Source: Clostridia bacterium (lineage in GTDB: Bacteria; Bacillota; Clostridia; Christensenellales; Borkfalkiaceae). From it: a stretch of DNA of 64,000 nucleotides. Both the position numbers and the translations under genes were made by a program. This document shows, in pieces, positions 2,339 through 63,338 of the stretch (positions are counted from its first letter, which is position 1; the number at the start of each line of letters is the position of its first letter). The notes under the pieces were generated by a model. That model was not told the DNA's origin. It worked only from the letters and a program-made list of their open reading frames with translations, and ran no database searches. The stretch is taken from assembly GCA_021199295.1 (NCBI GenBank), contig JAJQII010000002.1:7756-71755 (forward strand). Reading direction: 5' to 3'.

Positions 2339-2499
2339 CACGCAATTCTTTTTTTATTGCTGTAAAAAAATAATTGCACGATTTTATACTCTTGCCTCCC
2401 CTGCAAGGGGAGGAATTAAAGGTGGGGTTTTCCCTTTTGGTAATACTAACTAACCCCTTCGCCACTTCGTGGCCCTCTTCCCCTTTCAGGGGACGCAAG
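2339..2499. repeat. Repeat cluster in the infA-rpmJ spacer: partial element-X hairpin H1 (2339-2380), module M2 (2391-2432), module M3 (2452-2499)
   Basis: H1 matches 10497-10538. M2 CTTGCCTCCCCTGCAAGGGGAGGAATTAAAGG recurs inverted at 22614-22655. M3 AACCCCTTCGCCACTTCGTGGCCCTCTTCCCCTTTCAGGGGACGCAAG recurs at 40841-40888 and inverted at 30921-30965. Confidence 0.9.
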
Positions 2500-2613
2500 A
2501 ACACGAACAAAGCAGTCTACTCCTACTTATTATCAGCATAAATAGTCACTGTCTTTGCAGTCTGGTTATCGCGCAACTATTGCTGCGCTGCTTTTAGCAC
2601 ATATGTGCGGAAG

Positions 2614-2835
2614 TTACGATTTACTGCGCCAGGTTATTCTGCCGCGCTTCAGGTCGTAAGGACTCATTTCTATCTTTACAGTATCGCCTTCGATAATGCG
2701 TATATAGTTCATCCTCAATTTTCCTGAAATGTAAGCGTCTATAACATGGCCGTTTGACAACTGAACTTTAAAGTTGGCGTTGGGCAGGCACTCTATTACC
2801 TTGCCTTCGGCTTCAATAAGGTCGTTCTTTGACAT
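2614..2835 (-). CDS. infA: translation initiation factor IF-1
   Basis: Track ORF 2614-2865 trimmed to ATG 2835 (GGAGGA 5 nt upstream). [26 protein letters not shown]..., S1-like fold family. Confidence 0.93.
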
Positions 2836-2848
2836 CGATTCCTCCGCT

Positions 2849-3154
2849 TCATTCTGCGTCCGCATCGGACGCCGTTGTTTGTGCTGCGTTATATTTTTTT
2901 AACGCCGAATATATCTCGCTGTCGAACACCCTTGCGCCTGCCGCAAGCTTATCGCCTATCGCATCTTCCCTTTCGGGCAGAATGTGAAGATGCTTTAAAC
3001 TCTTTTTCTTAGGCGCGGCAAGTTTTTTGCAATCGCCGTCGGATACAAGCACGTAGCCGTTCGCCAGCACTTCTTTTATAATATAATATTTGCCTGCGTC
3101 GCGCCCCTGCGTGCTTTTGCACACACCGCCGACAGCAACGTTGTTTTTTTTCAT
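2849..3154 (-). CDS. KOW-domain small RNA-binding protein (common map-infA spacer gene in Clostridia)
   Basis: Trimmed to ATG 3154 (GAGGA upstream). [29 protein letters not shown]... is KOW-like. The family call is from memory. Confidence 0.65.
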
Positions 3155-3173
3155 GAATGAGTCCTCACGCAAA

Positions 3174-3923
3174 TCACAGTGTGAGAATTTCCGTTCCTTC
3201 CGTTGTAATAAGCACCGTGTTTTCGTAATGGGCGGAAGGTTGCCCGTCGTTGGTGCGTATGGTCCAGCCGTCGGAGCGGTCCTGCCATACTTTGTACGTA
3301 CCCATGTTGATCATAGGTTCTATACAGATGGTCATTCCCGCCTTAAGGCGTATGCCCGTTCCCTTTTTGCCGTAGTTTGGTACGGCGGGATCTTCGTGCA
3401 TGTCTTTGCCTATGCCGTGCCCCGTGAGCGCCCTTACCACGCCGTAGCCGTGAGCCTCGGCATGGGTCTGTACGGCGTAACCAATATCGTAAAGGGGTGT
3501 GCCGTCGCGCAGACCTTCGAGCGCCTTAAAGAAACATTCTTCGGTAACTTTTACAAGTTTACGCTTTTCTTCAGAGACGTTGCCTATTAAAAACGTCCTT
3601 GCGGCGTCGCCGTTATAGCCGTTCTTTTCGGCGGTTATGTCTACGCTTACTATGTCGCCGTCTTTGATTATAATATTATCTGACGGTATGCCGTGGACAA
3701 CCACGTCGTTTATTGATACACAGCTTGACGCGGGGTAGCCCTCGTAGCCTAACTCGGAGGGGATAGCGCCGCATGACGTTATATACCTGTAAACGAGCTC
3801 GTCTACCTCTTTGGTGGTCATTCCAGCCTTGATGCGTTCGCCTACAAATTCAAGGGTTTCCTTTACTATCTTGCATGCCTCGCGCATCTTTTCAATTTCT
3901 TGCGCCGACTTTATATGAATCAT
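3174..3923 (-). CDS. map: type I methionine aminopeptidase
   Basis: MIHIKSAQEIEKMREACKIV...HGIGKDMHEDP...; trimmed to ATG 3923 because the track start 3938 is a TTG inside adk. Confidence 0.93.
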   Translation of the reverse strand: MIHIKSAQEIEKMREACKIVKETLEFVGERIKAGMTTKEVDELVYRYITSCGAIPSELGYEGYPASSCVSINDVVVHGIPSDNIIIKDGDIVSVDITAEKNGYNGDAARTFLIGNVSEEKRKLVKVTEECFFKALEGLRDGTPLYDIGYAVQTHAEAHGYGVVRALTGHGIGKDMHEDPAVPNYGKKGTGIRLKAGMTICIEPMINMGTYKVWQDRSDGWTIRTNDGQPSAHYENTVLITTEGTEILTL

Positions 3924-3924
3924 A

Positions 3925-4551
3925 TTACGCCTTGTCAAGTACCTTGCAGATCTGTGCGAAAACTTCGTCGGGCGAACCCTCGCCGCTCACTACCGTTACC
4001 AGCTTGCCCTGCTTTTCGTAATAGTCTATCAAAGGGGCTGTCTGGGTGCGGTAAGTATCCAGACGCGCCTGCACCGTTTCGGGATTGTCGTCTGCCCTCT
4101 GGTAAAGGGGCTGGCCGCATTTGGCGCATGTCGTTACGCCGTTAAGCGTGGATACATGGTAGCTTTCGCCGCAGCTGCATACCCGCCTGCCACATATCCT
4201 GTCCATAAGCAGGGAAAACTCTACCGAGATGTTTATGCACAAATCTATATGCGCAAAGCCGTCGAGCTTTTCCGCCTGGAACAGATTGCGGGGGAAGCCG
4301 TCGAGCATATAGCCCTTTGCGGCGTCCTCCCAGGTAAGTCTGTCCTTTACTATGTCGCAGGTAACCTCGTCGGGGACGAGCTTGCCAGCGTCGATATAAC
4401 TTTTGGCGAGCTTGCCTATCGGCGTGCCGCCCTTTATATTAGCCCTGAATATATCGCCCGTGGAGATATGCAAGAGACCGTATTTCTGCTCGATCTTGCT
4501 TGCCTGAGTTCCCTTTCCCGCGCCCGGAGCGCCTAAAAGCACAATGTTCAT
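3925..4551 (-). CDS. adk: adenylate kinase (Cys4 zinc lid)
   Basis: MNIVLLGAPGAGKGTQ P-loop; lid CGRRVCSCG...CAKCG. Confidence 0.96.
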   Translation of the reverse strand: MNIVLLGAPGAGKGTQASKIEQKYGLLHISTGDIFRANIKGGTPIGKLAKSYIDAGKLVPDEVTCDIVKDRLTWEDAAKGYMLDGFPRNLFQAEKLDGFAHIDLCINISVEFSLLMDRICGRRVCSCGESYHVSTLNGVTTCAKCGQPLYQRADDNPETVQARLDTYRTQTAPLIDYYEKQGKLVTVVSGEGSPDEVFAQICKVLDKA

Positions 4552-4612
4552 TTTTAATCCCCCTTTCGTCGATATATTTTAAGTTACTTTGTTTTATTTG
4601 GGCTTAACAGCC

Positions 4613-4710
4613 CCTAATCGTTGCATAGATACAAGCAAGACACTTTATCACACATATCTATGCAGTGTTTGGTTAGCAGTCCTAATCGTTGCATAGATAC
4701 AAGCAAGACA
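4613..4710. repeat. 30-bp direct repeat pair in the secY-adk spacer
   Basis: CCTAATCGTTGCATAGATACAAGCAAGACA at 4613-4642 and again at 4681-4710. The intervening ATATCTATGCA is the reverse complement of TGCATAGATAT in the first copy. Confidence 0.9.
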
Positions 4711-10433: not shown

Positions 10434-10496
10434 ATAAATTCTCCTTGATTTATGATTAAATACCTACAACAACTTTTGCAGAGGACTGTGTTCTGC

Positions 10497-10639
10497 TCAC
10501 GCAATTCTTTTTTATTGCTGTAAAAAAACAATTGCCGTGACTTTTCGGGGACAACCATTCTTACGAATGTTATTTCCCCGCTTTTTCGTATTTTTCAGGG
10601 CGTACCATTAATATAATACGAAAAATTCACCCTTTTACC
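10497..10639 (-). repeat. Element X copy 1 (~145-nt triple hairpin) in the rpsQ-rplN spacer
   Basis: Aligns along its whole length with 20506-20660 and with the reverse complement of 31077-31234. Hairpins are H1 10497-10538 and H3 arms 10581-10591 / 10614-10624. Confidence 0.9.
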
Positions 10640-16501: not shown

Positions 16502-17443
16502 TTATTTTTCCGTGGCTATATCGCCCGCCTGGGGCACGGGCTGCCCTTCTTCCCCTTCCCCTTCGGAGTCAAGCTCGAAAAGGAATGCCAGATCCTGGAG
16601 CAGTTCCTGTTCCGTCTGGGTGAAGTCAGTCTTTTTAACACTGTAGTAATTTCTTTTAGCCCTTTCTTTTGCAAGGCGTTCCTCTTCCATTTTAAGGCGG
16701 CGTTTGCGCTCCTTTTCAGAAATGGTTTCGTTGCTTATCCCGAGTTTTTTTAGTTTGACAAGGGAAAGTATGCCCAGGATTACCACTACCAGCAGAAGCG
16801 CCGTGCATACAGCCTTTATTATCGATTCGAAAATCATAGAAAAGGGCATATCTGAAAGCATAGAGCTTAAATCGCCGCCTCCGCCTGGCGCTTCGGCAAC
16901 AGTGCTGTCGCCTGAACTGCGCATCAGGCTTTGTTCCGACTGGAAAAGCCAGCGTACTCCCGTCATACAAGAACCTGCGTCCTTTAATATGTTCTCCACG
17001 CGAAACCATATCATCATACCCGAATTTTTAAGGGCTGACGATATCTCGGAGCTTGACATGCCGTCAAAATCGCTGGACTGCGTATAAGACGAAACCTGGC
17101 TTACAATTATGCACACGGCGGTAAGCAGTATTATCATTATGCTTAAAATGCTGTCGGTCTTGGGGAAACGCGTCTGCAAGTCCTTTTTAAGCCCCGCGTT
17201 GTAAGAACGTTCGAGCGAATTGGTTATAACCAGCAATACCACCCATGCCGCCATTACGGCTATAAGAAGGGGCGAACACATAAAATAAACTATAGGTATT
17301 GCCGCGATAAGGCATATTTTTATTATTTTATACACCTTTAGCGGCATTATGGGCTTACGGTTTTTATTCCTGCTTATGCCCATCTCGTCTTCGCGTTCCA
17401 TGCGCCGCAAGCGCTTGCGTTCACTATTTTTCATCAGTCGCAC
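16502..17443 (-). CDS. hypothetical membrane protein (about 4 TM, charged termini), coupled to the upstream ABC gene
   Basis: 313 aa; hydrophobic segments in the translation; 10-nt overlap with the end of ORF 17434-19341; no family recognised. Confidence 0.6.
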   Translation of the reverse strand: MRLMKNSERKRLRRMEREDEMGISRNKNRKPIMPLKVYKIIKICLIAAIPIVYFMCSPLLIAVMAAWVVLLVITNSLERSYNAGLKKDLQTRFPKTDSILSIMIILLTAVCIIVSQVSSYTQSSDFDGMSSSEISSALKNSGMMIWFRVENILKDAGSCMTGVRWLFQSEQSLMRSSGDSTVAEAPGGGGDLSSMLSDMPFSMIFESIIKAVCTALLLVVVILGILSLVKLKKLGISNETISEKERKRRLKMEEERLAKERAKRNYYSVKKTDFTQTEQELLQDLAFLFELDSEGEGEEGQPVPQAGDIATEK

Positions 17444-20491: not shown

Positions 20492-20505
20492 AAACTAACC
20501 GTGTT

Positions 20506-20720
20506 CACGCAAATCTTTACGGTTTGCTGCCCGTAAACATTTGCCGTGATTTTCAGGAAACAACCAATCTTCGTTTCACTTCGATTGTTATTTTCCCTCT
20601 TTTTTGTATTTTTTAAGGGCGTACGTATTATATAATACAAAAAATTCACCCTTTTACCTTAATACTTCGGGGTTTTGGGCATAACGCAGTGACGCCCAAA
20701 ACTCATTATTTGTTTTAGAA
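20506..20720 (-). repeat. Element X copy 2 plus a 60-nt extension shared with copy 3
   Basis: H1 is 20506-20548; the core runs to 20660. The extension TTAATACTTCGGGGTTTTGGGCATAACGCAGTGACGCCCAAAACTCATTATT matches the reverse complement of 31021-31076. Confidence 0.9.
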
Positions 20721-20785
20721 TTAACCGCAAATGTGCGTATTCTTTTGCCTTCACCCTTTGAGGGGACGCCTTACAAGTGGCACAA

Positions 20786-21102
20786 TGGTAGCTGAAAGAT
20801 ATCCAGCTTAGATTGCCACGCCGCCAAAAGCGGCTCGCAATGACACACACCCTTGCCTCCCTTGTAAGGACGAGCCAATATTATTCCAAACAGTGTGGTA
20901 CACTGTTTGGATTGGCGAGATGAGCAAACGCATAAGTAAGGCGTTTGCGGCGACCGAGACGGCGGGTAAATACCTAACCGCCGTTGAGACGGAATTAAAG
21001 GAGGGGTTTTCAGATAATATAGAATGTAATGGAAACAGCCTTCTTGCGTCATATTATCTGAAACATAATATAATGCGGTGCGCAAAGTGTCGCTTACGTA
21101 CA
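20786..21102. repeat. Repeat cluster between the two COG0523 genes: S unit (20786-20845), perfect hairpins, M2 fragment, Q module (about 21044-21102)
   Basis: TGGTAGCTGAAAG-N-GCTTAGATTGCCACG-hairpin-CTCGCAATGACA; CCAAACAGTGT-GGT-ACACTGTTTGG at 20887-20911. Confidence 0.85.
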
Positions 21103-21113
21103 CAATGACATTA

Positions 21114-22196
21114 TTACACACCGAAAAGTTCGGAAAGTTCCTCTTTGTCTATCTTGCTGCCTATTACGCACAGCCTGCCCGTGTAGGCGGCACAGCCGTC
21201 ACGCACTTCGGGCTCGCCAGGGACGTAGTCAAAGTGAAGCCAGCCGCCCTCTTTACCCTTTACTATCCCCTTTGCACGGAGCACAGTACCGTACTGCACT
21301 GAATTGGTAAGGGCAGACAGCGCCGCAGTAAGTTCTTCTTTGGTAAAGCTCTTTGCCGTCTCAACACCCCAGCTTTCAAATATTTCGTCGGCATGGTGGT
21401 GATGGTGTTCATGTTCGTGTTCGTGGTCGTGGTCATGGTCATGATGATGGCATCCGCATTCCTCGTCATGGTCGTGATGGTGTTCATGCTCGTGCTCATG
21501 TTCATGTTCGTGTTCATGTTCATGCTCTTCGTCATCATCGTGGTGATGGTGGTGATGCTCGTGGCAGTGTTCCTTAAGTTCAGCAAGCATATCCGAAAGG
21601 GTGTCGCTGTGTTCCATGGCGGCAAGTATCTCTTTGCCGTCAAGCTCCTGCCAGGGGGTTGTAACAAGGGTAGCCTTGGCATTGTGCTCGCGCACGAGCT
21701 GGGCAGCCTTGGCAAGTTTTTCTTCCCCCGCCACGTCGGCATGGCTGAAGATTATGCAGTTTGCAGTTTCTATCTGGTCGTTGAAGAACTCACCGAAGTT
21801 CTTCATATACATTTTGCACTTTGCCGCATCCACTACCGCAGTATACGTGTTAATAGTGCAGTCGGGCAATTCGGCACTGTATACCGCCCTGATAACGTCG
21901 GAAAGTTTGCCCACGCCGGACGGCTCGATAAGAATCCTGTCGGGCTTGTACTCGTTGTAAACTTTGTTGAGGGCTTTGGCGAAATCACCCACAAGCGAGC
22001 AGCATATGCAGCCCGAGTTGAGCTCGTTTATCTTTATGCCCGCTTCGGCAAGAAAGCCTCCGTCTATGCCGATATCGCCGAACTCGTTTTCTATTAACAC
22101 GAGTTTTTCGCCCGCGTAAGCCTCTTTAATCAGCTTTTTGATAAGCGTGGTCTTGCCAGCGCCTAAAAATCCCGAAAAAATATCGATTTTTGTCAT
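21114..22196 (-). CDS. COG0523 (CobW/ZigA/YeiR-type) metallochaperone GTPase with a long His-rich insert
   Basis: 360 aa with FSGFLGAGKTTLIKKL, ENEFGDIGID, CICCS and a ~75-aa HEHEHEHEH/HDHDH tract. Confidence 0.9.
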   Translation of the reverse strand: MTKIDIFSGFLGAGKTTLIKKLIKEAYAGEKLVLIENEFGDIGIDGGFLAEAGIKINELNSGCICCSLVGDFAKALNKVYNEYKPDRILIEPSGVGKLSDVIRAVYSAELPDCTINTYTAVVDAAKCKMYMKNFGEFFNDQIETANCIIFSHADVAGEEKLAKAAQLVREHNAKATLVTTPWQELDGKEILAAMEHSDTLSDMLAELKEHCHEHHHHHHDDDEEHEHEHEHEHEHEHEHHHDHDEECGCHHHDHDHDHEHEHEHHHHHADEIFESWGVETAKSFTKEELTAALSALTNSVQYGTVLRAKGIVKGKEGGWLHFDYVPGEPEVRDGCAAYTGRLCVIGSKIDKEELSELFGV

Positions 22197-22261: not shown

Positions 22262-22340
22262 ACATTCCGCTTTAAAGTTTGTAATATATAGGGTAAATCT
22301 TACAGGCGGTTTTTGTTTGGGAAAGGTCTATGCGGTCGAA

Positions 22341-22700
22341 TGGTAGCTGAAAGTTTACGTGCTTAGATTGCCGCGCTGCGCTCGCAATGACAAGTAACTT
22401 AGAGGCTTTGTAAAAGCCGTGGCAATCTAAACCCAACGTTTATCAGCTACCATAACCACCTTTTTAATAAGTGTAGAATTGTTAGAATAAACGTATCATT
22501 TTTAAACAACTAATCTGCCGTCCTGCCTGCTGGTCGCGCGTCCGCGCGGGATTGCCACGGGGTAGACCCCCTCGCAATGACATATTATTGTGTACCGTTA
22601 GCCTTATAATCTGAAAACCCCTCCTTTAATTCCTCCCCTCTCAGGGGAGGCAAGGGGACATGTCATTGCGAGGCTTTGTAAAAGCCGTGGCAATCTAAGT
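22341..22700. repeat. Repeat cluster: S units (22341-22392 forward, 22402-22453 and 22661-22700 reverse), L module (22455-22582), M2 inverted
   Basis: Direct comparison with clusters at 26 kb, 28 kb, 30.7 kb, 61.6 kb and 63.1 kb. Confidence 0.9.
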
Positions 22701-36312: not shown

Positions 36313-38010
36313 TCATAAATCAGACTTTTCAGCCACGTTCTTCTTTTCACGGGTTTGCTCTTGCGAAGCCGTAATATCAGCAACCTTTTTCTTGGGGGCA
36401 GTGCCTAATACCTGGCCGGATATTTCGTTTTGCTTTTCTTTGTTTGCCTCACTTAATTTTACTCGGTTAGTTCCTGTGGCAGCGGGCGCAGCTTTTGCCT
36501 GTTCAGCCTGCTGGGCTTCACGCTTTGCCTTGTTTGCCTCATATTCGCGCCTGTCCATTTCTTCACGCTCAATCTTGGCTTCCTCGGATCTCTTGTGATC
36601 TTCTATAACTGCCTGCTTAGCGCGTTCATTATCAACCCGTTCACGCCGCTTAGCCTCAGCCGTTTGCTGCCTGACGATCTGCTTTACGTCGCTGGAAAGT
36701 TTGTTTATGTAAGCTTTCTGCTGCCTCTGTTCGAGTTTTAACTGGTTTTTGCGTTCAGTTTCTGCCGCCTTCTGGCGGGCTTTCTGTTCCCTGTCAACCT
36801 TTTTATAGTTTGCCTGAACTTCTCTGAGTTCAGCCCTTATCTTATTCTTTTCCGCCCTGTTGGCAGCCTGTCTTATCCTGTCTTTGTAGCCGTTGACTAC
36901 CTGCTTACGCTTTTCCGATTCGGCTTTCTTTTCTTGCTTCAGGTAAATTTTATGCTTCTTTTCAGCCTCTTTCCTTGCCTTTTCCGTAATCTTTTGCGCG
37001 AGCTTTGCCGCCTTTAAATCGGCAGGGCCTACCACGTGCTTTATATTGTTTTTATCCTTTGCGAAGTTGGCGTGGGCAATGGGAATGGTCTCAACGTTGC
37101 ACTTCCCCTTGCCGTCCATCGTAAATTTTGTAAACTCAACGATCTTTCTACTCGCTATAGCGTCAACTATAGCGCTTTTGGCTTTCTTAAGATTTTCTTC
37201 GTCGAGTTTCTTGTCGCCCGTCTCGCGGTAATCGATATTGTGACCGTCTATGCTGAAGCAGTTGATAAAATGCTTATAGTCGGCGTTTACGTCAGGGTTG
37301 CCCATGCAGCTTTCAGCCTGCAGGTTACCTAAAAGCTCATCAAATGCCCTTGTCCTCCCTTCAGGACCATGCCCCACATATCCCTTTTTAGTCATGTCGT
37401 ACATAGGCGACTTTGTCTCGTCGCCAAAGGTAATCATACGGGGTTCTTCGGGTTCTTTGAGCCCTACGTTATAGGTATTTTCCTTTGTAACGAGGAAATC
37501 AGGGCGAGTGACATACCCCTTTTCCACGTCGTACGCGGCGGTGTCAAACCAAAGACTATCCTTTCGCAGATTGGCGTCACGGTATGCCTTGTACTGCATT
37601 ACCCATTCAATATAATTAGGATCTTCAGTGGATTCCCTGCCGTTCACTCTTCTTTCCGCCCTGTATTCACTGGAGGTAAGATAATCCTCTACATTTTTGG
37701 TAAAATCTTCAACAACAGGCCGTAACGCCCTATAATTTACTTCCTCGGGCAACCTTATGCCGCCTGCAAGGAAATAATCGTATTCATCCTTAACATCCTC
37801 TTTGTAAACGGCATTGTCAAGCCTTTGATTATAGTGTTCTTCAAAACCGTTTTTTACGAGAGTTTCCCGTATCTTTCTATATACGATATTTCTTAAAGGT
37901 TCAGCATAATCGCTGGGAGCAGACAGATCTTTGCTCATAGCCTTTATAACGTCCTTAGATATTCTGTCCGTTACTTGGTCTAAAAGACTACTCGAATTTT
38001 CACCAGGCAT
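36313..38010 (-). CDS. hypothetical protein: ~330-aa unrecognised N-terminal domain plus ~230-aa K/E/R/Q-rich coiled-coil tail
   Basis: 565-aa uninterrupted ORF with GGAGGA upstream. No signal peptide, TM segment or catalytic motif that I recognise. Confidence 0.7.
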   Translation of the reverse strand: MPGENSSSLLDQVTDRISKDVIKAMSKDLSAPSDYAEPLRNIVYRKIRETLVKNGFEEHYNQRLDNAVYKEDVKDEYDYFLAGGIRLPEEVNYRALRPVVEDFTKNVEDYLTSSEYRAERRVNGRESTEDPNYIEWVMQYKAYRDANLRKDSLWFDTAAYDVEKGYVTRPDFLVTKENTYNVGLKEPEEPRMITFGDETKSPMYDMTKKGYVGHGPEGRTRAFDELLGNLQAESCMGNPDVNADYKHFINCFSIDGHNIDYRETGDKKLDEENLKKAKSAIVDAIASRKIVEFTKFTMDGKGKCNVETIPIAHANFAKDKNNIKHVVGPADLKAAKLAQKITEKARKEAEKKHKIYLKQEKKAESEKRKQVVNGYKDRIRQAANRAEKNKIRAELREVQANYKKVDREQKARQKAAETERKNQLKLEQRQQKAYINKLSSDVKQIVRQQTAEAKRRERVDNERAKQAVIEDHKRSEEAKIEREEMDRREYEANKAKREAQQAEQAKAAPAATGTNRVKLSEANKEKQNEISGQVLGTAPKKKVADITASQEQTREKKNVAEKSDL

Positions 38011-50238: not shown

Positions 50239-50976
50239 TTATTTTTTGAATACAAACAGGTATTCGTGCGCAAGCAATAAAAAGTTATACTTAACACTAT
50301 TCGTCTTCCAGAAACCCGTCGCTTTACAGTTATGCTGCTGCTTTATTATGATTTCTTTTGTTTTGAACCCTGCAAGTTCAAACAGCCGCATTGTTTCAAA
50401 AGCCAAAGGCTGCACCATCCCGTTTTTTCTGGTATCACCCATCAGAACTGCACAGAATTTATCTTTTTTCAGAACACGGTAAAATTCGTCTGCCACTTTG
50501 CCCATTTCGGCAAGAAACGGCTTCATGGATAATAATGACAAGTCGCCTTCTATGCCGTCGCTGTAATTTATAATATTCGCATACGGCGGGTGCGTACAAA
50601 TAAGATCTACACTTTCTTTATCCAGCGGTAATTGCCTTGCATCGCCCTGTAAAATGGATATATCTACGCCCGAATCATATTCAAAGGCACATTTTTTTAC
50701 AGAGAGATCTACCGCCAACGGGTTTATATCTATACCTATAAAATTTCTGCCGGTGAGCTTAGCTTCTACCGCCGTTGTTCCGCCACCGACAAAAGAATCC
50801 AATACGGTATCCCCTTCCGACGAATAACGTAAAATAACGTTGCGCGGTATATAAGGCGACCAGTTACCGCGATATTTTGCGTCATGCGTAGCCCACCTGC
50901 CACGCACAGGAAAGTCCCATACCGTGGTACTTTCTAGTTCAAAATTTTCAGGCTGTAAAGGTATCTTCTTTGCCAT
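50239..50976 (-). CDS. DNA (N6-adenine or N4-cytosine) methyltransferase, second MTase of the R-M island
   Basis: 245 aa. AdoMet motif VLDSFVGGGTT and catalytic CTHPPY; 1-nt gap from the upstream nuclease gene. Confidence 0.85.
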   Translation of the reverse strand: MAKKIPLQPENFELESTTVWDFPVRGRWATHDAKYRGNWSPYIPRNVILRYSSEGDTVLDSFVGGGTTAVEAKLTGRNFIGIDINPLAVDLSVKKCAFEYDSGVDISILQGDARQLPLDKESVDLICTHPPYANIINYSDGIEGDLSLLSMKPFLAEMGKVADEFYRVLKKDKFCAVLMGDTRKNGMVQPLAFETMRLFELAGFKTKEIIIKQQHNCKATGFWKTNSVKYNFLLLAHEYLFVFKK

Positions 50977-50977
50977 A

Positions 50978-51517
50978 TCAGTCGGTTACCAATTCTGGCG
51001 GTACGGGTAAACCCAATTTTGTAAGCGGAATATACTCAAAATAATAATCACAATCAACGGAATGTATATAGTCTAACACATCTTTATATTTGGGATCTTT
51101 GAACCAATCGTCGAGCAAATATATGTACTTGACGTCGATATTAGCCGGCGACATAAGCTTTTTATACTGCTTTTTCTTAAAATCACATGTCTGGAGTTTT
51201 TCATCAACCGATCCGGCTACCTGCTGATGCTTACACTCTATAATATGCAAAATATTATTTGACAATACATATATGCTATCGTCAGGATAGAGCTGTTTTG
51301 AAATATAGTCTTCCCAGTTTATATTCAGTTCCTTCAGAAATATATTATAAAATGCGTGTTTTTTAAATACCCTTGCCACAAGTTCGTTGTCGTAAAACAC
51401 TTTATCGGTCTCTACTGCATAATGAGGCTGTTTCGCAAGAAACGTAGCTAAATCAACTTCGCCTTCGAACACAAGTCCCGTTCGCGTGTTTCCTCCGCCT
51501 TTTCCGTTTTTTATCAT
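50978..51517 (-). CDS. small PD-(D/E)XK nuclease, putative type II restriction endonuclease
   Basis: 179 aa. YPDD...HIIECKHQ matches D...ExK. It sits between two MTase genes in one tight operon. Confidence 0.7.
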   Translation of the reverse strand: MIKNGKGGGNTRTGLVFEGEVDLATFLAKQPHYAVETDKVFYDNELVARVFKKHAFYNIFLKELNINWEDYISKQLYPDDSIYVLSNNILHIIECKHQQVAGSVDEKLQTCDFKKKQYKKLMSPANIDVKYIYLLDDWFKDPKYKDVLDYIHSVDCDYYFEYIPLTKLGLPVPPELVTD

Positions 51518-51527
51518 AATAACTCCT

Positions 51528-52595
51528 TTAATTGTGTATCAAAAGTTCACTTATTTTTCCGCGGGAATTGCCTTTACTGTTTACCGAACGCGCCGCATAA
51601 ATTCTTTCTATTTTGTAGTTGCTGTACAAATCATCAAAAAAATTATCTTCCTTGTTGGTATTTTTAGGATCAGAATTGCTTAAAACAAATTTTGCACCCT
51701 TGCCGTTAATTCGGTCTACATACTCCGCAAGGCGGCGCTGTTCGTTATCATCAAAAGCGTCTATGTTATAAGAAGTAAAACCCGATGTCTGCGAAATAGG
51801 GCGGTACGGCGGATCAATATACACGAAAGTATTTTCATCTATAAATTTCTCTGAAAGGGTATAATCGCCGCAAACGATTTCTACATTTTGTAACGCCGAC
51901 GATAAATTTATAAGATTAGCTTCGTCGCATATAGTGGGATTTTTATACGCCCCCATAGGTACGTTAAACTGCCCCTTTTTATTAACGCGGTAAAGCCCGT
52001 TAAAGCAAGTCTTGTTCAAAAAAATAAACTGGGCAGCTTTTACCACCGACGCACTACCGTTAAGTTGAACACTGTTAAATTTATCACGGACGGAATAATA
52101 GTAAAATTTTCTGCCGTTTTCATCCATAGGCAAAAATGATAGCTGCATTTCAGTAAGTTTGCTTATAAGCGGCTTTACGTCTGATTTTATCACATTGTAG
52201 GCATTAATAAGTTCCGCATTTGAATCGCTTACGTAAAAACTTTCAAAATTGTATTTAGAAAGCAAATCAAAGGCGAGCGCACCGCCGCCAACCATTGGCT
52301 CGGCATATTTTGTAATAACTTTGCCGCTATCAGAAAAAATATACTTTTCTATTTCGTCTGTAACCTGCGATTTACCGCCAGCCCATTTAACAAACGGCTT
52401 TATCGCAATTTTTTTTAATTTTTCGTTTTTTATTGTCCTTTTATCTACGGGCTTTTGTGCCGTGCTCGGAATTATCCACATGTTGCCGACCATCATTGCA
52501 CCGTCTATACGCTTTTCGCCACATAAAACAGAAACGCGCCTTGGCGATATATCCCACTTTTCAGCAGCTTCTTTTGCAGAAATAAAACTTAACAT
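51528..52595 (-). CDS. Dam-family (alpha-class) N6-adenine DNA methyltransferase with an N-terminal HTH domain
   Basis: Trimmed to ATG 52595 (AGGTGA upstream). FVKWAGGKSQ, AEPMVGGGA, YIDPPY. The N-terminus ISAKEAAEKWDISPRRVSVLCGEKRIDG is excisionase/MerR-type HTH-like. Confidence 0.88.
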   Translation of the reverse strand: MLSFISAKEAAEKWDISPRRVSVLCGEKRIDGAMMVGNMWIIPSTAQKPVDKRTIKNEKLKKIAIKPFVKWAGGKSQVTDEIEKYIFSDSGKVITKYAEPMVGGGALAFDLLSKYNFESFYVSDSNAELINAYNVIKSDVKPLISKLTEMQLSFLPMDENGRKFYYYSVRDKFNSVQLNGSASVVKAAQFIFLNKTCFNGLYRVNKKGQFNVPMGAYKNPTICDEANLINLSSALQNVEIVCGDYTLSEKFIDENTFVYIDPPYRPISQTSGFTSYNIDAFDDNEQRRLAEYVDRINGKGAKFVLSNSDPKNTNKEDNFFDDLYSNYKIERIYAARSVNSKGNSRGKISELLIHN

Positions 52596-52677
52596 ATTTT
52601 CACCTGAATATATTATATTCGAGAATGCGAATAAAAGCAAGTAAATTCTTGTTCAATTTAATAATATTATACACATT

Positions 52678-55177: not shown

Positions 55178-55233
55178 AAGCTGAAGACAGCCCGACTTAG
55201 ATTGCCACGCCGCTAAAGCGGCTCGCAATGACA
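55178..55233 (+). repeat. solitary S unit
   Basis: AAGCTGAAGACAGCCCGACTTAGATTGCCACGCCGCTAAAGCGGCTCGCAATGACA. Confidence 0.9.
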
Positions 55234-55263
55234 AAAGATAGACTGGCGGCGGCTCAGAGTTCG

Positions 55264-55473
55264 TTACTTAATGCCGCGGTAAGGGCGGAAAGCGATAAGG
55301 GCATAGATATCGAACAGGGCGGCGACAAATCCGCAGGCAAGCACGGTGCGCACGGCGGTAATGTTGCCCAGGCACAAAAAGGCAAGCAGGTTAAAACCCG
55401 AAAAAGCGTACACGCCGCCGCAAAGACAGATAAAAATAAGTATGGCATTACACACGATAGCAGAAAGTCTCAT
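55264..55473 (-). CDS. possible 69-aa two-TM membrane peptide
   Basis: ATG-trimmed part of track ORF 55264-55512; hydrophobic; no clear RBS. Confidence 0.3.
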   Translation of the reverse strand: MRLSAIVCNAILIFICLCGGVYAFSGFNLLAFLCLGNITAVRTVLACGFVAALFDIYALIAFRPYRGIK

Positions 55474-55531
55474 ACAGTAAATATGTGCAGTTGCCCCCGT
55501 AATATGCCTCAACTAACGCGTATTTTTAAAA

Positions 55532-56446
55532 CTAAATATTCTCTATTTTTATTGATACTCCCGTGCCTGCATCCTGGTACATTACCCAGTAGCCGCCGTC
55601 TTCTACGGGTATGTAACTAGCCATTCCCTTAAGGCTTGGCGGGGGCGTCTTGCTGTTTTTAGACGGCACGCCGTAACATATACAGCGGGGAGAACTATCC
55701 ATATAAATGACGCCGAAAACGTAAAACTTACCCTTACCGTAACTTATTTTAGCCCAGCGCGAGCCCTCTATCAGCCTTTCGAGCCCCTCCTCGCGGGGAT
55801 ATGTAGCGAATATCCGCTCAATTTCAGGTTTCATCCTCTGGTAAAACCCGATATCCCGCGCAAGCGGCACAGGCTCTGCCTTATCCGCCTCTAATCCTTC
55901 CTGCGGCTCTTGGCGTACGCCGCCAGTATCCTCATCTTCTGCGCCGCCTGCCTCTTTTTGTTCTTCCTCTTTATTTTCGCATAAAGGGCTGCCGCCCTCA
56001 TCGCCGACGGTGTCGCCTTGCCTTTCATAATAATTTTCCTCTGCTATAGCCTCGTCATCGTAGGCGCTCCCTGCCCTCTCATCCCTTTCCACGGCACGCC
56101 GCGCATAATCCGCCGCAAAGCCGTAATCGCCACATATTGCCGTGGCAATTAAGCTTACCTCGCCCTTCAGCACAAAGCAGACGGCAGCCGCGAACCCGAA
56201 AGAAGTATCCACCTCGCTCTCCCCTTCGAAGCCCTCTTCGCCGAAAATTTCCTCGTTAGCCCCGTCGGACAACGCGACTATGTACCGCCCTTCGGAAAGG
56301 GGCGCGAAGTTTATAAACGTCACCCCCACGCGCAAAAAATTACCGTATCTTTCTGCCTTAACAAGTCCTGAAAGAGTTGCGCCGTCCGACGAAAACCCGC
56401 TTTTAGTTGCCTTAATAACCGCTATGTTTTTGGTATATCCTGCCAC
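55532..56446 (-). CDS. conserved hypothetical protein with an acidic central linker
   Basis: 304-aa ORF; C-terminal ...GKFYVFGVIYMDSSPRCICYGVP...GYWVMYQDAGTG; no family name recalled. Confidence 0.6.
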   Translation of the reverse strand: MAGYTKNIAVIKATKSGFSSDGATLSGLVKAERYGNFLRVGVTFINFAPLSEGRYIVALSDGANEEIFGEEGFEGESEVDTSFGFAAAVCFVLKGEVSLIATAICGDYGFAADYARRAVERDERAGSAYDDEAIAEENYYERQGDTVGDEGGSPLCENKEEEQKEAGGAEDEDTGGVRQEPQEGLEADKAEPVPLARDIGFYQRMKPEIERIFATYPREEGLERLIEGSRWAKISYGKGKFYVFGVIYMDSSPRCICYGVPSKNSKTPPPSLKGMASYIPVEDGGYWVMYQDAGTGVSIKIENI

Positions 56447-58495: not shown

Positions 58496-58519
58496 TTTAG
58501 TATTAAGTAAAAAATGATA

Positions 58520-58553
58520 CCCCGCCGAGGCTGCAGCCTCGGCGGGGTATTCT
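58520..58553 (+). terminator. terminator after pckG
   Basis: CCCCGCCGAGGC-TGCA-GCCTCGGCGGGG, then TATTCT. Confidence 0.6.
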
Positions 58554-58574
58554 ATGATTGTATTGGAATTAGCT

Positions 58575-58667
58575 TGCCGTGCAACGTTAGTTGCAATGCG
58601 CTACCACCGCTTGCAAGCGGCACGCGCCTACCTGTCATTGCGAGGGGGTCTACCCCTCGCAATGACA
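58575..58667. repeat. N module plus a perfect 15-bp palindromic form of the core (58633-58667)
   Basis: TGTCATTGCGAGGGG-GTCTA-CCCCTCGCAATGACA. Confidence 0.9.
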
Positions 58668-58741
58668 TTTTGTTATGTATCGTTTAGTAATTGTCGCTAA
58701 GTACCATATTGTCAAACGTTTGTTCTTGGATTTTATAAAGT

Positions 58742-58769
58742 CCCCGCCGAGGCGGCTGCCTCGGCGGGG
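58742..58769. terminator. second copy of the same GC hairpin, 3-prime of the Big_2 lipoprotein gene
   Basis: CCCCGCCGAGGC-GGCT-GCCTCGGCGGGG. The arms are the same 12-nt sequence as the 58520 hairpin, with a different loop. Confidence 0.6.
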
Positions 58770-58804
58770 ACGTTTGTTTTATAACCCTTTAAAGGAAAAG
58801 TCTG

Positions 58805-61219: not shown

Positions 61220-61562
61220 AAATACTTATCCTCCCTTATTGAGTAAAAAATTTTATGCCTTAAACTTTACGCAAAAAAATAAAAAAGGAAGTGTTTTTAA
61301 TTGCTTAACGATTAGTTAAGCAATTACCCGCGGGTAAAAAATTTTTCTTAATTTTTTTCAGTGGTCTTTCCCTTATAATATTAACGCGCGAAATTCCAAG
61401 GCATACTGATTATAACACGTAAAAATGTAAAATGCAATACATTCCGCCAAAATTTTATAATAAAAAACAAAAAATGTTTGTTTATAACAAAAAATAAATT
61501 AGTTTTTTTGTCAAACATTTGTTTTAATTAAGGTATGGTCAAATAGCGAATATTATCATCAC

Positions 61563-61853
61563 CTTTCAGTCACCATATTACCTTATAACAAGGCGAAGAG
61601 TTATTAAAAAGTAACGTATTATTTTTAAACAACTAATCTGCCGTCTTGCCTGCTGGTCGCGCGTCCGCGCGGGATTGCCACGGGGTAGACCCCCTCGCAA
61701 TGACAGATAGGTTTCTGTCGTTTCTTGACTAAAGTGACCGCGCACCACGTCATCCTGAGGAGAGAGCAAAGCGAACGACGTGAGGATCTCGCGAGAGCGA
61801 AGCGGCTCGCGGAAAGCCAAGCACGACGCCTTTCAGCTACCATACCACCGCTT
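61563..61853 (-). repeat. Complete ~290-nt composite unit (P + core hairpin + L)
   Basis: Collinear with 63095-63338 and with 28144-28437. Confidence 0.9.
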
Positions 61854-61933
61854 TTATAATTTATGCGGTTAGCCTCTTGAAAGGGGGAATTTGATGATAA
61901 ATCAATATTCTACTTAAAGGAGGAAAAGCGCAT

Positions 61934-62041
61934 ATGACAAATTCTGATTTATTAGAATTGGCTATGCTGCTTGAGCAGTTAAAAGCCTTACTTGATAGAT
62001 TAAATATAGAGTACTTAGCTATAAAAATTGCAAAAAAATAA
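61934..62041 (+). CDS. 35-aa amphipathic-helix micro-ORF
   Basis: Own translation MTNSDLLELAMLLEQLKALLDRLNIEYLAIKIAKK; AAAGGAGG 8 nt upstream; AT-rich. Confidence 0.4.
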   Translation: MTNSDLLELAMLLEQLKALLDRLNIEYLAIKIAKK

Positions 62042-62175
62042 CCGCCACTAATTGGATTAAGCTGCGGCAGTTATTTAAGTAACACAAACGGCTAACCGTT
62101 TAAAGGTTATACCCTTGTTGTGATTTTATTATATAACATATTTTTTTACTTGTCAACTATCAAAAAATAATTTTT

Positions 62176-62202
62176 TGCCGTGCAACGTTAGTTGCAATGC
62201 GC
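62176..62202 (+). repeat. N module fragment
   Basis: TGCCGTGCAACGTTAGTTGCAATGCGC is identical to 58575-58601. Confidence 0.8.
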
Positions 62203-62213
62203 TTTTACCTGTA

Positions 62214-62241
62214 AGCCTTCCCCTCAAGGGGAAGGCTTTTC
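62214..62241. terminator. hairpin terminator between the micro-ORF and the queT 3-prime end
   Basis: AGCCTTCCCC-TCAA-GGGGAAGGCT followed by TTTT on the plus strand. Confidence 0.6.
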
Positions 62242-62259
62242 TAAGTCAATAAAACGCTG

Positions 62260-62886
62260 CTATTTTTCTTGTTCGTCGGGGGATATGTCGGGGGTAATTG
62301 GATTTTCTGCAGAATTTTTATTTCCTGCGGCGACGTGCACGGGCGAAGTAAACACGCTTACGCCCCTGTTCCTTAACCTTAACACGGCAAAGTAAAGGGG
62401 AATACCTAAAACGTAAATCCAAAGAGCCTCGTTTAAAATCATTACGCCGAACTCGTACCAATAAACGACGTCGGGAGTGCCTGCAAGAATCCACACCGCA
62501 GGCACGATAAAGGCATTTAAAAGAATGGGGAATATACCGCCGATAACCACTCGCAGCACGTTATTTTTTACGATTTTACCAGTCAAATAAGTAAGCGCTG
62601 CCGCTAAGAGTGTGGCAAGACTTCCAAGGAAAATATCGTAAACCCCGTAGCCCGAAAACAAATTCGCCAGAATACAGCCGACGTAAAGGGCGGGCACTGC
62701 CTCGGGGAAAAACAGCGGAAGCACGCAAAGCGCTTCGGCGGGGCGTACTTGCAGAGGGCCGTAGGCAAGCGAGCCAAGCGACCATGTAAGTACAGTGTAC
62801 AACGCGGCAATCACCCCGGCGCGGCACAGCATTTTTGCGTTCCAGCGGGAAAAATCGCCTGCGATTGACCTGAATAAATTATTCAT
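62260..62886 (-). CDS. queT: queuosine-precursor transporter QueT (ECF S component)
   Basis: Trimmed to ATG 62886. Multi-TM, ...VRPAEALCVLPLFFPEAVPALYVGCILANL...; preQ1 riboswitch upstream. Confidence 0.85.
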   Translation of the reverse strand: MNNLFRSIAGDFSRWNAKMLCRAGVIAALYTVLTWSLGSLAYGPLQVRPAEALCVLPLFFPEAVPALYVGCILANLFSGYGVYDIFLGSLATLLAAALTYLTGKIVKNNVLRVVIGGIFPILLNAFIVPAVWILAGTPDVVYWYEFGVMILNEALWIYVLGIPLYFAVLRLRNRGVSVFTSPVHVAAGNKNSAENPITPDISPDEQEK

Positions 62887-62911
62887 TTTGTTTGTTGCGG
62901 ATATTCGGCGC

Positions 62912-63006
62912 AAAATATAAGGGACGGCATAAAACCGTCCCTGGAATACTTATATCCGCATCTCCTTCGGTTTTTTTAAGGAAGTGTTGAGCCGAAAACC
63001 TTCCTG
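62912..63006 (-). promoter_or_regulatory. preQ1-I riboswitch (aptamer about 62961-63006) with a terminator expression platform (62912-62941)
   Basis: Minus strand AGGAAG-GUUUUCGGCUCAACA-CUUCCU-UAAAAAAACCGAAGG. Loop UUCGG can pair with tail CCGAA. Then GGGACGG-UUUUAUG-CCGUCCC followed by UUAUAUUUU. Confidence 0.7.
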
Positions 63007-63094
63007 TTTTGATATGGTTATGTTTTGGTGAGGTATTTAGAATATCCCAGCATCAGTCACTTATTATTTAAGGAACAATGTTATATAAATAAAC

Positions 63095-63338
63095 ATTATT
63101 ATTTTTAAATAACTAATCTACCGTCCTGCCTGCTGGTCGCGCGTCCGCGCGGGATTGCCACGGGGTAGAATCCCCTCGCAATGACAAAGTATTGTGTGCC
63201 GCTCCTTAGCAGGAACGACCGCTCTCCTCGTCATCCTGAGGAGAGAGCAAAGCGAACGACGTGAGGATCTCGCGAGAGCAACTTAAGTTGCGGCTCGCGG
63301 AAAGCCAAGTTGGACGATATTCAGCTACCATACCACCG
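63095..63338 (-). repeat. Second near-complete composite unit (P + core hairpin + L)
   Basis: Collinear with 61563-61853. Differences cluster in the inner hairpins. Confidence 0.9.

Follow-up and report, generated by a model that had tools for sequence, protein, structure and literature searches.

Probable REP-type palindromes with a conserved foot and a variable tip in mosaic intergenic arrays of a Clostridia bacterium

The CGTC/TGTC-tagged REP superfamily has, according to the accessible text of Di Nocera, De Gregorio & Rocco (2013, BMC Genomics 14:522), no dedicated transposase. As given there, it takes in dRS3 of Neisseria (CGTC-1) and RPE-4 and RPE-6 of Rickettsia, its four families have uninterrupted stems of 8-9 bp and loops of 4-5 nt, and that portion of the text does not report it from Firmicutes, CPR, Chloroflexi, Planctomycetes or phages. 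In the NIME arrays, made up of dRS3 and RS elements, many families of repeat modules of 50-150 bp are set apart by dRS3, a short inverted repeat whose arms are conserved and whose centre varies (ATTCCC-N8-GGGAAT), and the arrays between genes vary in content and length across related genomes (Parkhill 2000; Bentley 2007). The NIME literature also describes dRS3 as the integration site of filamentous phages bearing their own transposase. The REP/BIME of Enterobacteria and the REPIN-RAYT systems of Pseudomonas have a GTAG tag, a lineage-specific sequence and a linked RAYT gene which is itself flanked by REPs. The integron attC site is a folded single-strand site with a conserved foot, conserved unpaired bases which identify the strand, and a 'variable terminal structure' whose length differs greatly from copy to copy.

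The window, the whole stretch analysed here, is 64,000 nt of a Clostridia bacterium (Borkfalkiaceae) known from a MAG (GCA_021199295.1, contig JAJQII010000002.1, 7,756-71,755 forward). Self-BLAST found 4.8 kb of repeated DNA in it. Of the 24 spacers of at least 150 bp, 16 carry ∼4.3 kb of this. These mosaic repeats make up 35% of the intergenic bases counted and are confined to spacers (Table 1). The other 0.5 kb consists of tandem repeats within two genes and lies outside the network. A preliminary description had placed repeats at about 17 intergenic regions and the self-BLAST recovered the same coordinates; its wording that they fill most spacers is fair because two thirds of the longer spacers carry them, and the fragment it gave at 38.24 kb is a copy of the AAAGCGGTG.TATGGTAGC head. 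It had counted the core at least 18 times in both orientations. The 12-mer CTCGCAATGACA was found 19 times (≤1 mismatch, both strands; 13 plus, 6 minus), whereas dinucleotide-preserving shuffles averaged 0.24 and never exceeded 2. Alignments of the modules S, L, P and X showed them to be shuffled, truncated and nested, in agreement with the BIME/REP-like mosaic already proposed. Q was nested within P in three of seven P copies, and a 60-nt Q module sits inside the CGCGCG hairpin loop of the L copy at 28126-28350. The QueT-Jag cluster and the 61.6 kb cluster are 84% identical over 246 nt.

Table 1. Repeat clusters, modules and cores of the window (window positions).
Feature	Position	Strand	Detail
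infA-rpmJ spacer cluster (ribosomal protein operon)	2338-2499		X end fragment, two M hairpins; self-BLAST
M hairpins, infA-rpmJ spacer	2391-2413, 2477-2499		CTTGC.TCCCCTG..GGGGA.G
X cassette copy, S17-L14 spacer	10494-10639	+	
DUF1980-CobW spacer cluster	20502-21094		X, S, M-like hairpin, further short modules
Full X cassette, DUF1980-CobW spacer	20502-20732		92% identical to L122 16996-17181
S module, DUF1980-CobW spacer	20784-20848		folds as two hairpins, z = -2.9
Core, S type	20811-20844	+	outer stem ATTGC/GCAAT; tip ccgccaaaagcgg
CobW-DUF2188 spacer cluster	22329-22709		S, inverted S tail, L, M hairpin, inverted core
Core, S type	22366-22391	+	minimal tip ctgcg
Core, L type	22550-22581	+	tip gggtagacccc; CGCGCG hairpin just before
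Core, CobW-DUF2188 spacer	22662-22695	-	tip gcttttacaaagc
EF-G-SDR spacer cluster	25863-26268		Q hairpin modules, inverted S tail, L module
Degenerate half-cores ending Q hairpin modules	25863-25874, 25978-25989	-	
Core, L type, EF-G-SDR spacer	26199-26230	+	
Deacetylase-MatE spacer cluster	28126-28529		L (minus) with nested Q, short P, degenerate S
Core, L type, deacetylase-MatE spacer	28145-28176	-	
Core, P type	28396-28434	+	covarying outer stem ATCCT/AGGAT
Degenerate core	28490-28528	+	ATTAC/GCAAT, one stem mismatch
MatE/YitT spacer cluster, largest; divergent 1.2-kb spacer (30.0-31.3 kb)	30355-31238		S, P with nested Q, Q with half-core, inverted L, S, M-like hairpin, inverted X
Core, S type, MatE/YitT spacer	30379-30412	+	
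Core, S type, MatE/YitT spacer	30885-30910	+	minimal tip cttcg
PdxT-tRNA-Arg spacer cluster, convergent	33763-34309		inverted P with nested Q, other modules
MnmA-36313..38010 spacer cluster, convergent	35858-36172		58-nt direct repeat pair, truncated P head
Isolated S/P head fragment (AAAGCGGTGATATGGTAGC)	38231-38255	+	direct reading, compared with P alignment
GDSL-DUF697 spacer cluster, convergent	40617-41040		P with nested Q, M hairpin, S
Core, S type, GDSL-DUF697 spacer	41012-41037	+	
Lone S module	42970-43049	+	core 43012-43045
Lone S module	55179-55233	+	core 55200-55232
PEPCK-Big_2 spacer cluster, convergent	58517-58774		two terminator-like hairpins around modules and perfect palindrome
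Perfect palindrome	58633-58667		TGTC-ATTGCGAGGGG-tcta-CCCCTCGCAAT-GACA
Cluster upstream of Big_2 gene (61.6 kb)	61557-61859		L and inverted P
L core, 61.6 kb cluster	61673-61704	+	
Inverted P core, 61.6 kb cluster	61749-61788	-	
29-nt module fragment	62175-62203	+	identical to 58574-58602
QueT-Jag spacer cluster	63088-63357		L and inverted P
L core, QueT-Jag spacer	63153-63185	+	
Inverted P core, QueT-Jag spacer	63230-63269	-	

The repeat unit is an imperfect hairpin of ∼26-60 nt with a conserved foot of 22 nt and a freely variable self-complementary tip. Its two halves, G-AT-xyz-C(A/G)CG and then CTC-z'y'x'-AT-GAC(A), are separated by 3-38 nt of self-complementary sequence; the opposite strand reads TGTC-AT-TGCGAG…GCA-AT-C. 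The foot comprises an unpaired TGTC tag (less often CGTC), a 5-bp stem which always begins A-T, T-A, a conserved mismatch block (C.C / A-T / C.C) and a short C-rich tail. Searching for the general pattern GAT-xyz-NN-CG-N3-45-CNC-xyz'-ATGAC gave 17 matches in the window, with xyz complementary in 16, while 30 shuffles gave 0-1 matches and none that were complementary. The outer-stem triplets of the window were TGC/GCA and CCT/AGG; outside it CTT, CGC, TCC, TCT, TAC and CCC occurred. In 871 kb of other genomes the triplets were complementary in 241 of 265 core matches, and where they were unforced by the search 26 of 46 were complementary compared to 1 in 64 by chance. Among 110 distinct cores, 80.9% of cells were paired as opposed to 65.4% in shuffles (0 of 500 as high), double-change cells numbered 182 versus 76 in shuffles, and the covariation score was 0.38, with slid partners at ≤0.10. 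Compensatory change maintains the outer stem and the tip. The tip sequence differs in nearly every copy in the window, and 227 cores gave 168 distinct tips with a mean self-complementarity z of -2.9. Some tips are minimal, such as CTTCG, with an inner stem of just 2 bp, and single-strand folding was weak for several cores (z of -0.4 to -1.5 in four of the six sequences folded).

On these sequence features the core would be classed as a variant of the CGTC/TGTC-tagged REP type, likened through the features given in the accessible text of Di Nocera et al. and not through consensus sequences. As far as that text describes them, the two share the tag, the stem beginning A-T/T-A, the short unpaired C-rich tail, common head-to-head dimers with the tags outside, and an occurrence in many phyla with no associated transposase. 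The window core differs from the same description in its 5-bp stem, mismatch block and variable 3-38-nt inner hairpin. The perfect palindrome at 58633-58667 (DNA fold -19.3 kcal/mol, z = -9.5) is the copy nearest the canonical form, having the tag, the AT-first stem and a 4-nt loop. Given the tag, stem and tail, the earlier statement that no named family fits does not stand for the core. The preliminary description had named, as the outcome which would speak against it, a match to an already described family whose mobilising enzyme is known; a described superfamily was found to fit the core, but it is explicitly without a known enzyme. The overall reading in that description is partly supported.

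The absence of a transposase, RAYT or recombinase from the window, also claimed beforehand, agreed with Pfam scans of 46 window ORFs, and no recurrent neighbour family lay beside the core among 852 ORFs of 120 bacterial loci.

Orthologous spacers of relatives carry other modules or none. The S17-L14 spacer has an X cassette in the window and unrelated modules in the orthologous spacer of L122, while the infA-rpmJ spacer has an X fragment and M hairpins in the window and a full X in L122. The EF-G/DUF2188/CobW/DUF1980 spacers measure 118/651/623 bp in the window, 273/591/379 bp in L123 with different modules, and 175/227/170 bp in L124 with no modules. As no clean filled/empty site pair was found among the relatives compared, mobility is inferred from this turnover between species whose DNA sequences differ by 11-23%; none of the comparisons captured a transposition or recombination event to the exact nucleotide.

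The arrays resemble those of NIME/dRS3, and also E. coli BIMEs, in having conserved hairpins between many module families of 50-200 bp, and their dynamics between relatives are similar to those of NIME. The arms differ, being ATTGC.. or ATCCT.. in the window and ATTCCC in dRS3, and the window core has an interrupted stem, a longer tip and a Clostridia MAG as host. No link to surface-antigen genes or a filamentous phage integrase, as in NIME, was found here. The model proposed for NIME arrays, in which the cores would themselves be immobile and the arrays would grow and reshuffle only by recombination with incoming DNA, is consistent with the matching architecture and dynamics, with the phage integration at dRS3, with module bodies between cores which are heterogeneous and lineage-specific, and with the presence of the core on viral contigs. 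We nevertheless regard it as unlikely. In many unrelated genomes and phages, single cores stand on their own in short spacers within operons, suggesting that the core itself disperses, and nested modules are placed precisely in hairpin loops, which looks like insertion and not exchange. Furthermore, no recombinase was linked to the core in the 120 bacterial loci.

We consider it likely that the repeats are non-coding, non-autonomous REP-type DNA palindromes in BIME/NIME-like mosaic arrays, with module bodies (head, linker, Q hairpin, X cassette and others) strung between and around the cores. Like the REP/BIME of Enterobacteria and the REPINs of Pseudomonas they are extragenic and non-autonomous; the palindromes are imperfect, with both their mismatches and an unpaired tag conserved, and copies are found singly, as inverted doublets and in mosaic clusters. 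Unlike GTAG REPs they have a TGTC tag and a foot near-identical across phyla, and unlike REPIN-RAYT no linked RAYT was present in the window or the 120 loci. The hairpin may form in single-stranded DNA during replication or transcription, or as a cruciform, and the foot would be recognised by a protein which acts in trans and whose gene lies elsewhere. RAYT and GTAG REPs suggest, by analogy, a Y1/HUH transposase as a candidate, and dRS3 a DEDD/IS110-type or other site-specific recombinase. Such a protein would spread the element to further spacers by copying or recombination, with a preference for the loops of other hairpins, and recombination between cores might then reshuffle the arrays.

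The hairpins might instead act primarily as RNA (mRNA stabilisers, processing sites, attenuators, terminators or protein-binding motifs), with their spread being secondary. Copies do lie within transcribed spacers, including those of the ribosomal protein operon (2.3 and 10.5 kb), where the hairpin end of the X copy at 10494-10639 is 61 nt upstream of the start codon of rplN on the minus strand. The compensatory changes which preserve the stems would also be expected, cores at portal/scaffold/capsid gene junctions in one phage lineage are mostly in the same orientation, and E. coli REPs are reported, in the accessible part of PMC12306157, to influence mRNA and to be found in sRNAs. However, overall the orientation of the cores relative to neighbouring genes is unbiased (24:30 for viral and 15:10 for bacterial loci), the tip stems contain 435 Watson-Crick pairs with only 2 G.T and 9 A.C and so no wobble excess on either strand, and Rfam has no family for the repeats even at E ≤ 5. 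Together these three results favour a DNA-level element. Cores are also found in divergent promoter spacers, such as that at 30.0-31.3 kb, and as inverted dimers, and no T-run follows the hairpins. A primary role as RNA is distinctly unlikely.

The inverted dimers raise another reading, namely that dimers of ∼87 nt bounded by TGTCATTGCGAG...CTCGCAATGACA are ordinary MITEs, which arose from an IS by deletion and are mobilised by the DDE transposase of that IS. Perfect terminal inverted repeats of 11-12 bp ending 5'-TG...CA-3' are present in sixty distinct head-to-head dimers, and L copies are 90-97% identical to one another, as if from a recent burst. This reading is very improbable given that no consistent target-site duplications of 2-9 bp were found at either candidate boundary, that single cores and head-to-tail arrays are common, and that no transposase was present in the window or recurrent in 871 kb of bacterial and related loci. 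MITE inverted repeats do not have a variable tip or a covarying stem, and the same ends recur in at least 20 phyla. The core can also be compared with integron attC, to which it seems analogous in its conserved foot, unpaired bases and copy-specific tip length. Unlike attC it has no R'/R'' boxes (GTTRRRY / RYYYAAC), cassette ORFs or nearby integrase, and the elements lie outside one-directional cassette arrays.

The core, in contrast to the lineage-specific module bodies, recurs with hardly any change in viral (phage) contigs and across at least 20 bacterial phyla. Such constancy of the foot sets it apart from REPs linked to RAYT, which are lineage-specific, and could instead mean a conserved host factor or a role at the RNA level.

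The probable REP-type palindromes would have side effects, including short-read assembly breaks, false ORFs and locally new promoter-like sites. As had been claimed, the repeats yield false ORFs (55228-55620, 63310-63696 and 20771-21121, all without a Pfam match); the first begins at an ATG within ..GCAATGACA of the S module at 55179-55233. The inverted X cassette of the MatE/YitT spacer stops 22 nt before the YitT start codon. The ATGACA end of the core at 28145-28176 is followed 16 nt further on by a TATAAT box, and the two form a sigma-70-like site ∼70 nt ahead of the deacetylase gene start.

The short hairpin repeats that the preliminary description had placed in most intergenic spacers of the window were found where claimed. 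With at most one mismatch allowed, the 12-mer CTCGCAATGACA was counted 19 times (plus strand 13, minus strand 6) against a mean of 0.24 in shuffled sequence, and self-BLAST of the window gave 4.8 kb of repeated DNA. Of the 24 spacers of at least 150 bp, 16 hold repeats, about 4.3 kb in total and equal to 35% of the intergenic bases counted; the remaining self-BLAST repeats are tandem repeats within two genes. The gene map showed cores in tandem, convergent and divergent spacers alike. The ratio of core orientations, 13 plus to 6 minus, was not significant. Pfam scans of the 46 window ORFs revealed housekeeping genes and one restriction-modification island. As already described, no transposase or recombinase was present among them, and the ORFs overlying the repeats, previously regarded as false, had no Pfam match. 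The S10-spc-alpha ribosomal protein operon is in the Firmicutes order and jag is at the right end. An assignment to cyanobacterial repeats was rejected, HIP1 being absent and the operon order being of the Firmicutes type. A full-text literature search with core strings and the pseudo-peptide FARNDK returned primers and unrelated matches only.

A single core is common to all of the main modules. It reads G-AT-xyz-C(A/G)CG, an insert, then CTC-z'y'x'-AT-GAC(A), where xyz and x'y'z' are the triplets of the outer stem; on the opposite strand this becomes TGTC-AT-TGC-GAG ... CG(T/C)G-GCA-AT-C. The pattern matched 17 times in the window with complementary triplets in 16 cases, while 30 shuffles gave 0–1 matches, none of them complementary. 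The triplets were TGC/GCA in 13 cores (those of modules S and L) and CCT/AGG in three (those of module P), and 16 of 19 core ends were exactly TGTCATTGCGAG. In a typical core the 5-bp stem is followed by a conserved mismatch block and then by an inner hairpin of 3–38 nt. The insert varies from copy to copy and is self-complementary, for example ccgccaaaagcgg, gcttttacaaagc, caaactacgtttg or gggtagacccc, being reduced to just ctgcg or cttcg in minimal cores. Further outer-stem variants were seen in the collected loci (CGC, TCC, TCT, TAC and CCC, with CTT in the related genome L123). Where the triplets were not imposed by the search, they were complementary in 26 of 46 cores, compared with 1/64 by chance. 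In 110 distinct cores 80.9% of cells were paired versus 65.4% after shuffling, a value reached by none of 500 shuffles; double-change cells numbered 182 versus 76, and the covariation score was 0.38 versus at most 0.10 with slid partners. The tips are highly diverse, with 168 distinct sequences in 227 cores, and self-complementary (mean z = −2.9).

The modules are composite. S and P share the head GGTAGCTGAAAG..GCTT(A/G)G, itself a small hairpin, and alignment of copies resolved L into four parts, namely an S tail in inverted orientation, a linker rich in AT, a CGCGCG hairpin and the core. The 60-nt Q module is nested in the CGCGCG loop of the L copy at 28126–28350 and lies within the P hairpin in three of seven P copies. 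Loci of related genomes were found via homologous proteins and the contigs encoding them. The locus L122 (GCA_021205485.1) encodes an identical L14 protein and shares 80–89% DNA identity across the operon, and its modules in the S17-L14 and infA-rpmJ spacers differ from those of the window; the X cassette precedes rplN in the window and rpmJ in L122. For the syntenic spacers of EF-G/DUF2188/CobW/DUF1980, the lengths are 118/651/623 bp in the window, 273/591/379 bp in L123 (EF-G DNA identity 85%) and 175/227/170 bp in L124 (77% identity). Those of L123 hold other modules, with the core stems ATCTT and ATCCT, and modules are absent from those of L124. No clean pair of filled and empty sites was found among the relatives, so that mobility of the repeats is inferred from turnover and nesting.

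Beyond the genome, a scan of species-representative genomes with the pattern GATTGCCRCG-N4-30-CTCGCAATGACA gave at least 120 matches, and the core was present in at least 20 phyla among the matches listed. The carriers among these comprised Alpha-, Beta-, Gamma- and Deltaproteobacteria, Campylobacterota, Bacillota, Bacteroidota (including cultured Mucilaginibacter, Hymenobacter, Lacinutrix and Leeuwenhoekiella), Chloroflexota, Planctomycetota, Nitrospirota, many CPR lineages, Gastranaerophilales, Elusimicrobia, Fibrobacter, Leptospirales, Armatimonadota, Gemmatimonadota, Atribacterota, Zixibacteria, KSB1 and others, and IMG/VR viral contigs also matched. In viral contigs, head-to-tail arrays of cores were found directly upstream of a phage gene, each unit with a different tip and with a ribosome-binding site and gene start directly downstream. 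One phage lineage (24 viral loci between L127 and L241, e.g. L144, L182, L194 and L241) has portal-, scaffold- and capsid-like genes in common and carries cores at different structural-gene junctions in each member, mostly in one orientation to the operon. It is the core alone that is shared widely; outside close relatives the L linker and the bodies of P, Q and X had no match. An inverted partner often lies 20–30 nt from the core in the collected loci, and 60 distinct head-to-head dimers with the tags outside were collected (median 87 nt).

The repeats form a dense mosaic of the NIME/BIME kind. Its building unit is a variant of the CGTC/TGTC REP superfamily in which the stem is interrupted and the tip variable. 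According to Di Nocera 2013 (PMC3733652), members of this superfamily have a stem that 'almost invariably' begins with A-T, T-A, is 8–9 bp long and closes on a 4–5-nt loop, a short unpaired 3' tail of consensus CCA, and an arrangement mostly as head-to-head dimers without a transposase; they occur in five phyla and include dRS3 of Neisseria and RPE-4/6 of Rickettsia. The core shares the terminal unpaired tag, which is CGTC, TGTC or CCTC in the superfamily. Across all loci the tag was TGTC in 392 cases, CGTC in 55 and AGTC in 11, the TGTC count being partly imposed by the search pattern; in dimer partner copies, where the search imposes nothing, its 5' base was T in 51 and C in 8 of 60. The core also shares the A-T, T-A-first stem. 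Columns 2–26 (A-T) and 3–25 (T-A) were invariant in all 110 distinct cores, although the extraction pattern itself required both bases; independent support comes from variant cores noticed by eye (GTCATTCC.., GTCATTCT.., GTCATCCC.., GTCATCCT.. and GTCATCTT..), since all of these keep AT after the tag. The head-to-head dimers without a transposase gene are a further likeness. In contrast, the typical core lacks the uninterrupted 8–9-bp stem with a 4–5-nt loop. Only the palindrome at 58633–58667, the arms of which match perfectly (TGTC-ATTGCGAGGGG-tcta-CCCCTCGCAAT-GACA; DNA fold z = −9.5), has an 11-bp AT-first stem without interruption, closed by a 4-nt loop. The tail following ..GCAAT was CTC 187, CCG 81, CCC 48, CCA 46, CTT 42 and CTA 34 times, with the first C imposed by the search pattern; CCA thus occurs in part of the copies but not in most. 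PMC3733652 indicates that its search may have missed bulged or unusual forms, and no strings matching the core were found in its supplements.

The array also resembles the NIME of Neisseria, in which inverted repeats with a variable centre flank many families of 50–150-bp modules and vary between relatives. Bentley (PMC1797815) describes dRS3, ATTCCC-N8-GGGAAT, flanking more than 100 such families in arrays that differ between strains, and states that NIME were 'not observed in non-neisserial genomes'. The architecture and the dynamics between relatives are alike, but the inverted-repeat sequence differs and the window array is therefore a NIME analogue rather than a NIME. REPIN/RAYT systems, which have a GTAG tag at the foot of the hairpin and a single-copy RAYT gene flanked by REPs, do not describe the present repeats, as the tag is TGTC and GTAG was found only within the tip of L-type cores. 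Given that a 2025 survey (PMC12306157) reports relatively low similarity of REP motifs across genomes, identity of the foot across phyla was not expected.

Several observations bear on whether the core acts as DNA or as RNA. The stems of the tips contain 435 Watson-Crick pairs versus 2 G.T and 9 A.C, thus no wobble signature of a one-strand RNA structure is apparent. Core orientation relative to co-directional flanking genes was balanced in viral (24:30) and bacterial (15:10) loci. A bias with transcription had been suggested by a crude count of 31:20 and by the one phage lineage, but the stricter count was not significant. The repeats, which the preliminary description could not place in a named family, matched no Rfam family either: in gathering mode tRNA-Arg was the sole match in the whole window, and a permissive scan of 20.4–31.3 kb gave matches at chance level, which fell well short of the gathering scores. 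The GAG/GAA internal loop was also considered by eye as a hammerhead-like or k-turn-like structure, but these readings were dropped because the junction topology does not suit them and Rfam was silent. An asymmetric block (C.C, A-T, C.C on one strand) is conserved within the otherwise palindromic core, as would be expected if the site were single-stranded DNA that folds and is recognised by a protein.

An enzyme that might act on such a site was found neither in the window nor recurrently beside the core in the collected loci. When 852 ORFs of 120 bacterial loci were clustered, no protein family recurred next to the core, and in the viral loci the recurrent neighbour families were structural proteins of the one phage lineage, with no enzymes among them. 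A Y1 transposase was absent from the 46 window ORFs by Pfam and none recurred in the 120 loci. A MITE, that is, a terminal-inverted-repeat element moved by a DDE transposase, would account for the inverted termini of the dimers but is unlikely, as no consistent target-site duplication of 2–9 bp was present at either boundary in 60 dimers.

Small palindromic repeats take up much of the intergenic space in some bacteria. To our knowledge a mobilising enzyme is known for one branch only, the GTAG REPs with RAYT, and none for the CGTC/TGTC branch, of which the window holds an interrupted-stem, variable-tip form in the NIME-like mosaics of a Clostridia MAG. That the foot is nearly unchanged across viral contigs and at least 20 phyla implies a conserved reader. 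Tentatively, the ATTGC-type core (TGTC-ATTGCGAG ... CG(T/C/A)(G/A)GCAAT-C) could be a single hairpin element conserved across bacteria and carried by phages, with its invariant foot and hypervariable tip read by one widespread trans-acting machine, either an orphan single-strand-DNA transposase or recombinase or a universal host factor, though we regard this as doubtful. If it were so, the machine would best be looked for in genomes as dense as this one, the origin and movement of transposase-less CGTC REPs, a question open since 2013, would be answered, and NIME-type arrays would be general in bacteria and not Neisseria-specific. The invariant foot, covarying stem and free tip provide a precise search pattern for phyletic profiling and a defined biochemical substrate, and the window gives a precise handle on what reads or moves the conserved foot.

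Positions of individual features in the window and in compared loci
Feature	Locus	Position	Remarks
Module X copies	window	10494-10639, 20502-20732, 31020-31157 (inverted), 2338-2377	
Module X copy	L122 (related genome)	16985-17212	
Promoter-like sites	window	28122-28149, 30646-30674	minus strand; also downstream of other L-type cores
Second small hairpin, CTTGC(C/G)TCCCCTG-N2-6-GGGGA(G/A)G	window	2391-2413, 2477-2499, 22632-22654, 40864-40886	also in loci L195, L137, L200, L068 and L122
Viral head-to-tail arrays	L142	2669-2856, 5029-5103	3-5 cores, 37-42-nt period
Viral head-to-tail array	L156	8304-8491	3-5 cores, 37-42-nt period
Ends of short-read contigs L246, L247 and L001	window	2366, 22670, 26007, 58619	inside repeat clusters
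Low-GC (39%) island	window	50239-52640	N4/N6 DNA methylase, PD-(D/E)XK nuclease-like protein, D12-class adenine methylase; repeat-free
In-frame tandem repeats	window	21384-21563 (CobW gene), 23132-23409 (DUF2188 gene)	unrelated to intergenic network
Perfect 30-nt direct repeat pair	window	4613-4642 and 4681-4710	adk-secY spacer; unrelated to other modules

Practical effects of the repeats include broken short-read assemblies, false ORFs with recurrent pseudo-peptides and, possibly, promoter-like sites beside genes. Logan short-read contigs (SRR15221298) that are 100% identical to the window terminate within repeat clusters, thus the repeats break short-read assemblies of the same genome. The core end ..CGCAATGACA supplies a −35-like ATGACA, and L-type copies run on with ..TGTGCCG.. 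and a TATAAT-like box 16–17 nt further. One of these sites agrees with the consensus at 11 of 12 positions and precedes the start of the deacetylase gene (28054) by about 70 nt. Judged by these sequence matches, the repeats may therefore donate outward-facing promoters.

Module X has a constant end 10–60 nt upstream of a start codon, in constant orientation to that gene. In the window the genes concerned are rpmJ, rplN, the DUF1980 gene and yitT; in L122 the gene is rpmJ. The constant end is the hairpin CACGGCAATTG-T7-ACAGCAAT-A6-GAATTGCGTGA, and the perfect palindrome GTATTATATAATAC lies inside the module. There was no match to X in Rfam. X resembles a movable cassette that would serve as a 5'-UTR, operator or promoter.

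The GC skew is negative across the whole window and the minus strand carries most genes; this, combined with the ribosomal protein operon and the location of jag at the right end, suggests that the window sits just to one side of the replication origin. The low-GC island is probably a restriction-modification system, given its methylase, nuclease-like and adenine methylase genes. The CTTGC(C/G)TCCCCTG hairpin occurs both in the window mosaics and in unrelated viral and Oscillospiraceae loci, and so may be another widely distributed palindromic repeat.
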